This document shows, one piece after another, positions 36,890-44,150 of a DNA stretch of 64,000 nt (position 1 is its first letter; the number at the start of each line of letters is the position of its first letter). The notes under the pieces were generated by a model, which searched no databases, was not told where the DNA came from, and was given only the letters and a program-made list of their open reading frames with translations. The stretch is from a plasmid. Where the stretch lies: sequence record NZ_CP049260.1. One strand, given 5' to 3'. The position numbers were made by a program, and so were the translations under genes.

Positions 36890-37867
36890 ATGATGACGGA
36901 ACTGCCTGACGACAATCTGCTGCCCGGCCCTTTTTCAGGTCTCGATCCCCATGCGGTGTCGGTGGGTGACGAGGCGCGGCCTCTCAACCCGGCGATGGCC
37001 TATCTTTTAAGCCTGCCTTCCGCCGCGAGCCGCCAGACCATGCGATCCTTCCTGCATATCGTCGCAGGCATGCTCGGTGCTCGCGCGTTGCAGCACTGCC
37101 CCTGGGGCAGCCTGCGTCGTCATCATGTGCAAGGACTGCTGGAGATGCTGTCGGCTTCCGGGCGCGCACCTGCCACCATCAATACCTATCTGTCTGCCCT
37201 GAAAGGTACCGCGCGCGAGGCGTGGATGATGAAGCTGATGGACACCGACAGCTATCAGAAAATCCTTGCCGTGCGGGCGGTACGCGGCAGTCGTCTTACC
37301 CGCGGGCGTGCCTTGACTCCGGAAGAAGTGCGCGCGCTGTTTTCGCTCTGCGAGCAGGACAAAAGCTGTAAAGGCCCGCGCGATGCGGCGATGCTGGCGG
37401 TGATGCTGGGCTGCGGACTGCGCCGTTCGGAAGTGGTCGGGCTGGATTATGCGAGCATTCTTGAGCAGGACCAGGCGCTGCGCGTGCTCGGCAAAGGAAA
37501 CAAAGAGCGGCTGGCATTTATGCCGGACACCGTCTGGCAGCGGCTCCGGCACTGGACTGACAGCGTACGCGGCGAACACCCCGGCCCGCTCTTTACCCGC
37601 ATCCGCGCGGGTGACGATGTCACGTCTGAGCGCCTGACCCCACAGGCGGTGTACCATATTCTGAACGAACGCCGTCTGCAGTGCGGCATCGATAACTGTG
37701 CACCGCACGATCTTCGCCGCACGTTCGCTTCCATGATGCTCGATAATGGCGAAGATCTGATAACGGTACGCGACGCAATGGGCCATGCCAGCGTCACGAC
37801 AACACAAAAATATGACCGCCGTGGCGATGCCCGCCTGCGCCGCGCGGCAGGCAAAATTAAGCTTTAA
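36890..37867 (+). CDS. tyrosine site-specific recombinase / integrase (phage-integrase family)
   Basis: catalytic residues in R..KGNKER..HDLRRTFAS..GHASVTTTQKY (R-K-H-R-H-Y); 325 aa; downstream of 900 bp AT-rich tract. Confidence 0.8.
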   Translation: MMTELPDDNLLPGPFSGLDPHAVSVGDEARPLNPAMAYLLSLPSAASRQTMRSFLHIVAGMLGARALQHCPWGSLRRHHVQGLLEMLSASGRAPATINTYLSALKGTAREAWMMKLMDTDSYQKILAVRAVRGSRLTRGRALTPEEVRALFSLCEQDKSCKGPRDAAMLAVMLGCGLRRSEVVGLDYASILEQDQALRVLGKGNKERLAFMPDTVWQRLRHWTDSVRGEHPGPLFTRIRAGDDVTSERLTPQAVYHILNERRLQCGIDNCAPHDLRRTFASMMLDNGEDLITVRDAMGHASVTTTQKYDRRGDARLRRAAGKIKL

Positions 37868-37961
37868 AAAAGCGGTTAACGGCCCATTGCGTGGCCCGGC
37901 AAAATGTTACGCTCACCATCATCGTTCAACCCTTTCTCAACTTCCAAAACCAGGGACAGGC

Positions 37962-40996: not shown

Positions 40997-43900
40997 TAAT
41001 CGATTTTCTGCGCAGGCAGCGCTGGCCACGCTGAAAGATTTTCAGTGTGATACGGTCGATTATGTGTTTGAGCGGCTGTTTGGCGAAAACAACACCACGC
41101 GGTTTCTTGTCGCCGATGAAGTCGGGCTTGGCAAGACATTGATTGCACGGGGCGTTATCGCCAGAACGCTGGAACATCTGCAGGATAAAAAAGATCGTGT
41201 CGATATCATCTATATCTGCTCCAGCGCGGCGATTGCTGGTCAGAATCAAAAAAGGCTCAATCTCAGCGGCTCGGAAGGGTTCTCGCTCTCTACCCGGCTG
41301 ACCTATCTGCCACGGCAGGTCAGCGAGCTGCGCAATAATAAAGTTAACTTTATCAGCCTGACGTCAGGCACAACCTTCGACCATACCGTAAGCCGTGAAG
41401 GCCATGCGGGAGAGCGCGCCATTTTGTACCGGATTTTGTATGACCTCCCGCTGGGCCAGGGCGAGCGACGCGCCCGGTTGCGTACAGGGCTGTTAAATCT
41501 TCTACAGGCGCGAATGGGAAAAGCGAGCTGGCGCGCCACCGCGCAGGGGCTGCGGGCTGATGAACTGGATAATGACCTCTGCCGGATGTTCCGACGCGAA
41601 GTGCTCGACGATAAACCGCTTTACGCGCAGCTTAAGCAGGGTTGCGAGCAGTTTATACGTTACCGTGACAGCAGCCGGATCCCGCCAGACGATACGCAGT
41701 TACGGCTTCGGCTTATCATGGCGCTGCGTCAGAAACTGGCTTTCGTTTGTCTGAAGGCCCTGAAGCCCGATCTGGTGATCCTCGATGAGTTTCAGCGGTT
41801 TAAGCATCTACTGGACGCTGAAGACGATACCGCGCGGCTCGCCACAGCCCTGTTTGAACAGAAGGAGGCGCGTGTTCTGCTGCTTTCCGCCACGCCTTAT
41901 AAAATGTTCACGCTGGATAACGAAACCGGGGAAGACGATCATTACCCGGATTTTATCCGCACACTGTCATTTCTGATGCGCGATCCGGCGCAGGTCAACC
42001 ACGTCAGCGCGCTGCTTTCCGCTCACCGGGCCGCACTGCATGCCGGTATACCTGAAGGTGAAAAAGCACGTCTTCAGGATGCGCTTTTGCGTGTGATGTG
42101 CCGCACCGAAAGGATTTCTGATACCCGCGACCGTAACGCCATGCTCGTTGAAGTTCCCCGCATAGCGCCGCTGCAGGCCGCGGATATCCGGCATATTCGT
42201 GCCGTTGATGCGGTTGCGGCCTGTGTGGACTCAGGCGATCTGGTGGAGTACTGGAAATCGACGCCCCATTTGCTCAACTTTCTGAAGCGCTATGCGCTGC
42301 GTAATAAACTTGATGCGGCTATCGATGCGCCGTCACCTGCGCTCTCTGCGGCGCTGAGAGCGGCCCGCGATGAGTGGCTGACGCCCGGTCAGCTGGATGA
42401 TTACCAGCCGCTTGAACCCGGCAACGCGCGGATGCGGCTTCTTTTTGAAGACACCATCGATAACGGGCTCTGGCAACTGTTATGGATGCCGCCATCGCTT
42501 CCGTATTACACACCAGGCGGCGTCTGGCAGGGGAAAAGCCATCTTACCAAGACGCTTATCTTCTCCTGCTGGAATGCGGTGCCGGATGCTATCGCCACGC
42601 TCTGCTCTTATGAGGCAGAGCGCCGGATGGTCAGCGGCGCGTCGGTGACGCATCGCGAGCTTTATCAGAAAATCAAACCGCTGTTGCGGTTTGCGAAAGC
42701 CAGCGCGGACGACCGTCTGACCGGTATGCCAGTCATGGCATGGCTGATGCCCTCACCGGTCCTGGCGACGGCGATTGATCCACTCACGATGGCCTGTGCC
42801 GGGAATAACGGCCCGCTCCCGCTGGAAACCGTGCTGGAAGCCGCCCGTGACATCTGCGAGACGCTTGTCGCCGCTTTACCCTCCAGCCCGGCGGAGGGCA
42901 AAGCCGATCCGCGCTGGTACTGGGCTGCGCCGGTGCTGCTCGATGCGCAGGGCGGGCTACTGGCGTGGTGTAAAGATCCACAAGGCTGGCGGGCGCTGGT
43001 GACGCCTGATGCGGATGACGACTCCCACTTCACCGCGCATCTGGAACAGCTGACAGACGCCGCCGAGGGACGCCTTACGCTCGGGCCGAAGCCAGACGAT
43101 CTGGTGGACGTGCTCGCGCTGTTCGCGCTTGGCGGGCCTGGTACCTGCGCATTGCGTGCGTTACAGAGGCTGGATCCGCAGACGTCGTGCGACAGCATGG
43201 CCCTTCTCACCGGTGCGGCGACCATCGCCTCGGGGTTCAGAACCCTGTTCAACATGCCGGAGACCATTGCGATGCTGCGTGGCGCAAGTGAGGAGACCTA
43301 CTGGCGTTTAACGCTGAAATATGGAGTTGAGGGCAATCTGCAATCCATGCTGGATGAATATGTCCATACGCTCCGGGAATCGCCTGGCGTGCAGGGATCT
43401 GGCGTCGCGGCACAGGTGGCCACCCTGTCCGCGCATATCCAGTCTGTTCTATCGTTGCGTGTCTCCCGGCTGCATCTGGACGCGCTGGAGGCTAACGATG
43501 CGGGCTTTGAGCGTGTAGAGTTTTCGACCCGCTGCCGCTTTGCGCTGCGGTTTGGTGATATCCGGGATGACAATAACGACGCGCTGGTACGGGCAGAAAG
43601 CGTTCGCGATGCTTTCAATTCGCCGTTTCGCCCGTTTGTACTGGCTTCCACGTCCATTGGCCAGGAAGGGCTCGATTTTCATACGTGGTGCCATGCGGTG
43701 ATGCACTGGAATCTTCCTGCAAATCCTGTCGATTTAGAGCAACGCGAGGGCCGGGTGCATCGTTACAAAGGGCATGCGGTGCGGAAAAATATCGCGCATG
43801 CTTATGGCATAGCGAGCCTTAAGGGCCACAACGCGGGCGACCCGTGGCAAACCCTTTTTGCGCGGGCAGCGCAGGACAGAGCGCCTGGGCAGTCCGAACT

Positions 43901-44150
43901 TATCCCTTACTGGATCTTTGAGAACGGCCCGGCGCGCGTGGAGCGCCGTATTCCCGTGCTGCCTTACAGCCGGGAAACCGGCAAGCTCAAAAGACTGAAG
44001 CAGGGGCTCGCGTTGTATCGCCTGGCGTTCGGACAGCCGAGACAGGAGGACTTACTCTCAAGTCTCAGCCATAACGCCCCGATCTCTGAAGACGCCCTTG
44101 CCGGCGGGCTGATATCACTTAAGCCGCCCGGCCGGTCCGGTAAAGCGTAA
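40989..44150 (+). CDS. SNF2-like superfamily-2 helicase (1053 aa)
   Basis: motif I FLVADEVGLGKT, motif II LVILDEFQRFK, motif III LLLSATPYKM, C-terminal RecA domain with QREGRVHRYKG (motif VI); start ATGTCTGA overlaps upstream stop. Confidence 0.8.
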   Translation: MSDNRFSAQAALATLKDFQCDTVDYVFERLFGENNTTRFLVADEVGLGKTLIARGVIARTLEHLQDKKDRVDIIYICSSAAIAGQNQKRLNLSGSEGFSLSTRLTYLPRQVSELRNNKVNFISLTSGTTFDHTVSREGHAGERAILYRILYDLPLGQGERRARLRTGLLNLLQARMGKASWRATAQGLRADELDNDLCRMFRREVLDDKPLYAQLKQGCEQFIRYRDSSRIPPDDTQLRLRLIMALRQKLAFVCLKALKPDLVILDEFQRFKHLLDAEDDTARLATALFEQKEARVLLLSATPYKMFTLDNETGEDDHYPDFIRTLSFLMRDPAQVNHVSALLSAHRAALHAGIPEGEKARLQDALLRVMCRTERISDTRDRNAMLVEVPRIAPLQAADIRHIRAVDAVAACVDSGDLVEYWKSTPHLLNFLKRYALRNKLDAAIDAPSPALSAALRAARDEWLTPGQLDDYQPLEPGNARMRLLFEDTIDNGLWQLLWMPPSLPYYTPGGVWQGKSHLTKTLIFSCWNAVPDAIATLCSYEAERRMVSGASVTHRELYQKIKPLLRFAKASADDRLTGMPVMAWLMPSPVLATAIDPLTMACAGNNGPLPLETVLEAARDICETLVAALPSSPAEGKADPRWYWAAPVLLDAQGGLLAWCKDPQGWRALVTPDADDDSHFTAHLEQLTDAAEGRLTLGPKPDDLVDVLALFALGGPGTCALRALQRLDPQTSCDSMALLTGAATIASGFRTLFNMPETIAMLRGASEETYWRLTLKYGVEGNLQSMLDEYVHTLRESPGVQGSGVAAQVATLSAHIQSVLSLRVSRLHLDALEANDAGFERVEFSTRCRFALRFGDIRDDNNDALVRAESVRDAFNSPFRPFVLASTSIGQEGLDFHTWCHAVMHWNLPANPVDLEQREGRVHRYKGHAVRKNIAHAYGIASLKGHNAGDPWQTLFARAAQDRAPGQSELIPYWIFENGPARVERRIPVLPYSRETGKLKRLKQGLALYRLAFGQPRQEDLLSSLSHNAPISEDALAGGLISLKPPGRSGKA

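Follow-up and report, generated by a model that had tools for sequence, protein, structure and literature searches.

The 64,000-nucleotide stretch of plasmid DNA analysed here (sequence record NZ_CP049260.1; the whole stretch is referred to as the window) carries three tightly coupled genes that very probably constitute a complete and apparently functional Azaca anti-phage system, zacA-zacB-zacC, which forms an accessory cassette on an IncFIB virulence plasmid of the pESA3 family of Cronobacter sakazakii. This identification follows from full-length profile matches of all three proteins. The product of the first gene matches the PADLOC ZacA profile over nearly the whole of both protein and profile (E = 1.1e-141), and it matches the Pfam family DUF6361 (PF19888) over nearly its full length (E = 4.2e-67; 227 bits against a cut-off of 25). 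The second protein is matched by the ZacB profile over essentially its full extent and that of the profile (2.4e-187), and the third by the ZacC profile over residues 6-1046 (E = 0; 1188 bits). The locus has the same three families, gene order and translational coupling as Azaca and no architectural difference from it. The particulars of this copy are its residence on a Cronobacter pESA3-family virulence plasmid and the XerC-type recombinase that adjoins it.

An initial annotation, made from the letters of the sequence, had described an anti-phage operon composed of an unknown protein, a phospholipase D (PLD) nuclease with two HxK motifs and a superfamily 2 (SF2) helicase, and had held it to be distinct from DISARM, Mokosh and SauUSI. 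Both statements were right, the second according to PADLOC and Pfam membership tests. Its further proposal, that of a candidate uncharacterised defence system, is refuted, as each gene encodes a full-length ZacA, ZacB or ZacC of a named system. The annotation had itself set out beforehand that assignment by a profile search to a named system of exactly this architecture would speak against novelty, and the PADLOC search returned such an assignment. Later papers credit Azaca to Millman et al. 2022 (PMC10952713; PMC12278908), whose preprint shows the system in its figures and does not use the name in its text. The RefSeq annotation of pESA3 already labels the three genes as encoding a DUF6361 family protein, a phospholipase D family protein and a helicase-related protein. 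Both the system and the plasmid are therefore already known, and novelty is not supported; DefenseFinder or PADLOC would label the locus Azaca, and its discovery value is small. What is new here are the boundaries of the cassette and an all-helical ZacA model without a solved relative.

The catalytic motifs of the nuclease and the helicase are intact. ZacB contains H111-x-K113 (FHPKIW) and H304-x-K306, the latter followed by G324-S-A-N327, and ZacC contains motifs I (DEVGLGKT), II (DEFQ), III (SAT) and VI (QREGRVHR). All of these motifs, which the initial annotation had picked out, are invariant in six sequences of each protein, drawn from three Cronobacter species, Geothermobacter, Kordiimonas and one metagenome contig. 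The ZacB model displays a two-lobed PLD fold, followed by a beta-rich domain at about residues 400-490 and a helical C-terminus; the beta-rich domain is confidently modelled and has only generic Ig/FnIII-like matches. In a search of the Protein Data Bank (PDB), the ZacB profile matched best to the HKD motif of SauUSI (7clg, E 0.007), and the PADLOC profile of type IV enzymes matches the same 40 ZacB residues. This similarity is weak but consistent with a type IV-like relationship.

ZacC is matched by the Pfam families DEAD, Helicase_C and ResIII, and its motif III is separated by about 500 residues from the Helicase_C (RecA2) match. The DrmD, DpdE, BrxH and HmaA profiles match it only in part, mostly over about 50-90 C-terminal RecA2 residues and with twenty-fold lower scores. 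The earlier description of this helicase as SNF2-like was put too strongly: its only basis is the weak resemblance of the C-terminal RecA2 lobe to those of DrmD, DpdE and RapA, and Pfam gives no SNF2_N match. For ZacA, in which no motif had been recognised, Pfam offers a domain of unknown function (DUF6361), and the predicted structure is all-helical and has no solved structural relative. A domain for reading modified bases, such as SRA or DUF3427, was not recognised in any of the three proteins. ZacA and ZacB have no matches in PHROGs, and one weak partial ZacA-like match was found in a phage collection.

Three known systems share parts of this composition. DISARM also combines a PLD protein (DrmC) with an SNF2-like helicase (DrmD), whose profiles ZacC weakly matches through RecA2. 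None of the three proteins matches DrmB (DUF1998), DrmC or a methylase, there is no DrmA in the locus, and the DrmA/DrmD matches are confined to about 70 RecA2 residues and score far under the NCBIfam cut-offs (for DrmD, 56.7 bits against 610). Mokosh (MkoA/MkoB, or the single-gene type II) likewise pairs a PLD-family nuclease with a helicase. However, the Mokosh helicase is an Upf1-like superfamily 1 (SF1)/COG1112 protein, whereas ZacC belongs to SF2 (DEAD, ResIII, Helicase_C), and no Mko profile appears among the PADLOC matches of the three proteins. In SauUSI, a type IV modification-dependent restriction enzyme (PDB 7CLG), a single chain contains everything, and each monomer has one HKD and a DUF3427 reader domain. 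In contrast, Azaca consists of three proteins, with both HxK lobes in the one chain of ZacB and a required DUF6361 subunit; the locus encodes no single polypeptide that unites PLD, SF2 ATPase and DUF3427 domains, and neither DUF3427 nor SRA was detected in its proteins.

Reading of the sequence confirmed to the base the gene coordinates, stop/start overlaps and GGAGG ribosome-binding sites of the initial annotation (Table 1). The genes are adjacent, in the order A-B-C and in one orientation. zacA and zacB overlap by 7 nt (ATGCTAA, 39179-39185; GGAGG at 39170-39174), and zacB and zacC by 8 nt (ATGTCTGA, 40989-40996; GGAGG at 40978-40982). The zacC stop codon (44148-44150) lies 6 bp before that of the convergent SDR gene, whose stop codon begins at 44157, as had been described. 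The placement of the operon directly after a tyrosine recombinase gene and an AT-rich tract was also borne out by the open reading frames (ORFs) and the base composition; a GC fraction of 0.38-0.48 across 36000-36999 indicates that the tract is genuine. Genes for the integrase, the SDR protein, a histidine phosphatase and an MCP flank the operon.

The operon may be transcribed from a promoter of its own. When four Azaca-positive alleles and one empty allele were aligned, the only stretches of the integrase-zacA spacer kept across species were AAAATGTTACGCTC and CAGGGACAGG. The latter stands directly before the zacA ATG and is its ribosome-binding site, and AAAATGTTACGCTC (37901-37914) is possibly an extended -10 element. 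zacA would then have its own promoter in the spacer; a consensus promoter scan gave no site within it, and an Rfam scan of the entire window gave zero matches. A 15-nt inverted repeat over the integrase stop (37770-37784 / 37881-37895) was set aside, as it is not kept in other species.

Table 1. Positions of the Azaca operon and adjoining features in the window.
Feature	Position	Strand	Description
AT-rich tract	35598-36889		1.3 kb, no long ORF; from about 35986 onward kept in C. muytjensii
Small ORF in AT-rich tract	36200-36313	+	37 codons; convergent with the minus-strand ORF
17-nt direct repeat	36220 and 36364		Within AT-rich tract
15-nt hairpin	36293-36324		3' end of the plus-strand ORF, between the two small ORFs
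Small ORF in AT-rich tract	36334-36447	-	37 codons; MTIALIVFLVVIIGYAFYKHTVLVKSRTLPSRGGKRR, hydrophobic peptide with basic tail
Integrase (XerC-type tyrosine recombinase)	36890..37867	+	325 aa; ORF list and direct sequence reading
Integrase-zacA spacer	37868..37961	+	94 bp between integrase and zacA
Azaca cassette (presence/absence segment)	37870..44156		6287 bp; blastn and junction reading
zacA (gene A)	37962..39185	+	DUF6361 protein, 407 aa; by analogy, the predicted required third Azaca subunit
zacB (gene B)	39179..40996	+	Single-chain, two-lobed PLD-superfamily nuclease, 605 aa
zacC (gene C)	40989..44150	+	SF2 helicase/translocase ATPase, 1053 aa
SDR gene	44157-44831	convergent to zacC	Intact in the window

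The activity of Azaca is known from homologous operons. Azaca was among 16 nuclease-NTPase systems tested in a 2025 preprint, in which it gave more than 10^6-fold protection against phage T4; the BmAzaca and KpAzaca operons both defend against T4, and protection is limited to a small range of phages, chiefly T-even ones (10.1101/2025.07.10.664194). In vitro, purified BmAzaca prefers T4 double-stranded DNA (dsDNA) over other host and phage DNAs and degrades it, cutting at the degenerate site A|NT. Cleavage requires ZacA, ZacB and ZacC together, and mutants of the PLD nuclease site or of the ZacC Walker A motif are inactive (10.1101/2025.07.10.664194). The preference for T4 DNA agrees with the link to SauUSI-like restriction of modified DNA that had been suggested for the operon of the window.

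By analogy with these homologues, ZacA, ZacB and ZacC would form one complex. Its SF2 ATPase, ZacC, would use ATP for loading onto DNA or moving along it and would license ZacB, the nuclease of the PLD superfamily, to cut phage dsDNA. The preferred substrate would be heavily modified (glucosyl-hydroxymethylcytosine) DNA of the T-even type, with base modification as the presumed recognition cue. Host and plasmid DNA would be spared for want of this cue and not through methylation, since no methyltransferase is present. ZacA would be a helical subunit that the complex cannot do without and that probably serves as a scaffold or adaptor, and the Cronobacter copy presumably shares the specificity of its homologues. 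The role of ZacA and the recognition cue are questions for Azaca as a whole and are not specific to the window. Several points weigh against this account. The phage assays concern the BmAzaca and KpAzaca homologues and not the Cronobacter copy, and the ZacB model is of moderate confidence (predicted local distance difference test score, pLDDT, 64.8). Mutations of conserved ZacA residues had no effect in vitro, and glucosyl-hydroxymethylcytosine as the cue is the authors' suggestion, the preference having been shown for T4 DNA only (10.1101/2025.07.10.664194).

It is conceivable, if rather unlikely, that the same system responds to another trigger, namely a feature of infecting DNA such as free ends, replication or recombination intermediates or damage, as proposed for the helicase-nuclease system Hachiman. 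The lack of a detectable reader domain in the three proteins would fit such a trigger, as would the high degeneracy of the cut sites and the need for the ZacC Walker A motif in cleavage, which is expected of a translocating sensor. However, BmAzaca favoured T4 DNA over other DNAs in the same purified-DNA assays, the narrow T-even-centred defence is the pattern of modification-dependent restriction, and the ZacB HKD motif is closest to that of a type IV enzyme. Recognition of modified DNA remains the preferred explanation.

The extent of the cassette was defined by natural alleles that lack it. Sister contigs L091 and L093, found through a lookup of the exact MFS protein and compared by blastn and junction reading, match the window with about 97% identity as far as 37869, the second base after the integrase stop. 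There, 27 unrelated bases replace the cassette, and the match resumes exactly at the SDR stop codon (44157). The same empty structure occurs in the complete plasmids of C. sakazakii JXES-28 and the C. malonaticus type strain (pCMA1), so that Azaca-less sister plasmids have about 27-33 bp between the integrase and SDR genes. Both the integrase and the AT-rich tract persist, with about 97% identity, in C. sakazakii plasmids that lack Azaca, and the integrase also stands beside the SDR gene in pCMA1. Because the integrase is kept in empty alleles, the segment that is present or absent is the Azaca cassette alone. These natural plus and minus alleles, with boundaries known to the base, offer ready-made isogenic comparisons.

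The history of the cassette appears to be largely vertical. Empty alleles of C. sakazakii and C. malonaticus have similar short fillers, and the empty state therefore probably represents an old allele and did not arise repeatedly by recent deletion. Collinearity with the window extends from within the AT-rich tract through the integrase and zacABC to the SDR gene in C. turicensis (79% nucleotide identity) and C. muytjensii (72%). Across these species, protein identity is 93% for the MFS protein, 89-91% for the integrase, 79-86% for the SDR protein and 67-82% for the Zac proteins. This parallel fall indicates that the Zac operon has long resided on the plasmid lineage and, as is usual for defence genes, has diverged faster. 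A TATCTCC remnant common to the C. muytjensii spacer and the empty-allele filler was too short to count.

The neighbouring recombinase is not an Azaca component. It matches Pfam Phage_integrase (2.7e-29), its RHR-Y motifs are readable in the translation, and homologues of 60-80% identity occur in about 1650 plasmid records across IncFIB, IncA and IncC. The closest plasmid homologue listed outside Cronobacter (66% amino acid identity) is the xerC gene directly upstream of mcr-10.1 in Enterobacter pMCR10_120063 (L112 7001-9982), and xerC was proposed, as a hypothesis only, to mobilise the downstream gene in the paper that first described mcr-10 (PMC7067168). The two arrangements are alike in that, in the xerC-mcr-10 module of Enterobacter IncF plasmids, the cargo lies directly downstream of the recombinase and in the same orientation. 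They differ in cargo, a colistin-resistance gene versus a defence operon, and no shared recombination site was found.

Such likeness raises the question of whether the recombinase anchors a cargo slot 3' of its own stop codon, occupied by Azaca here and by mcr-10 elsewhere, that is filled and emptied by site-specific recombination. The cassette starts 3 bp past the integrase stop and is precisely absent from sister plasmids, and seven sampled homologues have seven different downstream neighbours (mcr-10, IS421, the YafO toxin with mer, IS4321, mer, HipBA and a 3'-5' exonuclease). Nevertheless, the sequences downstream of the homologues' stop codons revealed no conserved motif, no repeat was found at the cassette's right end, and plasmid mosaicism and insertion sequence activity suffice to explain variable neighbours. 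The IncC homologue lies in apparent backbone, with a gene for a replication-terminus-binding protein and tra genes nearby. Moreover, the parallel divergence of Zac and flanking proteins in Cronobacter fits vertical inheritance with loss or allelic exchange by homologous recombination, and we consider capture by the recombinase improbable. The broader idea, that XerC-type recombinases of pESA3-family and many other enterobacterial plasmids define a slot in which whole modules are swapped, is a long shot; if true, it would amount to an unrecognised, integron-like, recombinase-proximal capture site for defence and resistance genes.

Very improbable is the proposal of the initial annotation that the locus is a small integrative defence island, in which the recombinase inserts and excises the integrase and zacABC as a unit between the MFS and SDR genes. 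Consistent with it, the gene 94 bp upstream encodes an intact tyrosine recombinase, has the same orientation and is preceded by the AT-rich tract, and the block from this tract to the SDR gene was not found beside the MFS orthologue in other genera. An integrative island would be gained and lost jointly with its integrase and be bounded by att repeats, often at a tRNA gene. However, presence/absence covers the cassette only, the integrase stays in Azaca-less plasmids, and the replicon is itself a plasmid. Around the cassette, or the integrase and cassette together, no att-type direct repeats were found, only short repeats at chance level, and there is no tRNA gene in the 64-kb window. A weak similarity, CGGTTA(A)CGGC, at both junctions was too short to count. 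The search for an empty site that had been suggested was successful in part: empty alleles were found in Cronobacter plasmids, with the integrase retained. Other genera were uninformative, as synteny ended after the MFS gene in this search, which returned 80 loci by way of the MFS orthologue, with no Cronobacter genome among them.

Azaca loci in other phyla, which lack an integrase, also argue against an island. The ZacABC loci of Geothermobacter, Kordiimonas and a metagenomic contig (among L103-L106) have the same gene order, and five of six junctions in the distant loci have a stop/start overlap of 7 or 8 nt, the exception being zacA-zacB in L104. They lie among or next to further nuclease, helicase and defence-type genes, namely those for type I restriction-modification, BrxR, WYL, PD-(D/E)XK with UvrD, and large SF1 helicases. 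We give almost no credence to a function outside defence, such as a plasmid maintenance or DNA-repair/remodelling module of a RapA-like remodeller and a Tdp1-like repair phosphodiesterase, given this placement of the family in defence islands, the anti-phage phenotypes of homologous operons, a RapA similarity that spans only about 45 RecA2 residues, and the dispensability of the cassette, which is missing from 13 of 33 records that keep the same backbone.

The window consists of DNA of a pESA3-family IncFIB plasmid, typed as non-mobilizable, as established by tblastn and megablast against PLSDB. Positions 22352-50686 share 99.9% identity with CSK29544_1p, a plasmid of C. sakazakii ATCC 29544, and positions 28000-50000 are 98.0% identical to pESA3 of ATCC BAA-894. 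Positions 1-22351 and 50687-60302 have no match in the compared 50-kb part of the CSK29544_1p record, and the plasmid is therefore probably another member of the family. A chromosomal, genus-ancestral context, considered from the synteny of the C. turicensis and C. muytjensii contigs, was rejected, as the same searches pointed to a shared pESA3/pCTU1-type plasmid. Genes upstream in the window encode type VI secretion components (TssF/G/J, PAAR), DsbD/DsbG and an iron ABC transporter together with the MFS protein.

Azaca is widespread on these plasmids. An identical ZacA is present in 179 blocks of a public assembly collection, with the same neighbours wherever these were read, and 20 of 33 region-matching Cronobacter plasmid records carry ZacA. 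ZacA homologues with a named source come from Cronobacter, with identities of 96% for C. malonaticus, 78% for C. turicensis and 67% for C. muytjensii, and ZacB is also present in C. dublinensis. A further 27 plasmid records, mainly from Bradyrhizobium, Rhizobium, Agrobacterium, Mesorhizobium and Shinella, encode ZacA homologues. Together with the near absence of matches in the phage collection, these records suggest that Azaca travels on plasmids fairly often. The great majority of Cronobacter strains carry pESA3-type plasmids (PMC12757443). An intact Azaca cassette is present in most of the Cronobacter virulence plasmid records that were sampled, which bears on the use of phages for biocontrol of C. 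sakazakii in infant formula; the literature searched contained no paper that links Cronobacter and Azaca.

Other variable features surround the operon. In CSK29544_1p, a segment of the SDR gene (window 44194-44344, about 131-151 bp; record 87414-87563) is inverted, with CTGCAG at both borders; this inversion, a few tens of bases from the end of Azaca, may be lineage-specific. The SDR frame is broken in contigs L003, L005 and L008, and the orientation in the window is the intact one. On the far side of the SDR gene, a histidine-phosphatase gene (window 44833-45469) alternates with a glycosyltransferase gene and an acyltransferase-3/SGNH gene in Azaca-less C. sakazakii plasmids (L091 14213-18125; L109 11577-15484), the latter pair resembling O-antigen modification genes. 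There is thus a variable slot on each side of the SDR gene. A bglG-bglF-ascB beta-glucoside operon lies between the MFS gene and the AT-rich tract in plasmids of C. muytjensii (L100 1679-5919) and C. malonaticus (L108 9999-14238). Its absence from the window (site at about 35577-35986) makes a third insertion/deletion within the same 10 kb. The AT-rich tract, which has no Pfam or Rfam matches, contains two small convergent ORFs, a hairpin and a direct repeat (Table 1), and in these sequence features it resembles loci for small membrane peptides or of the type I toxin-like kind.

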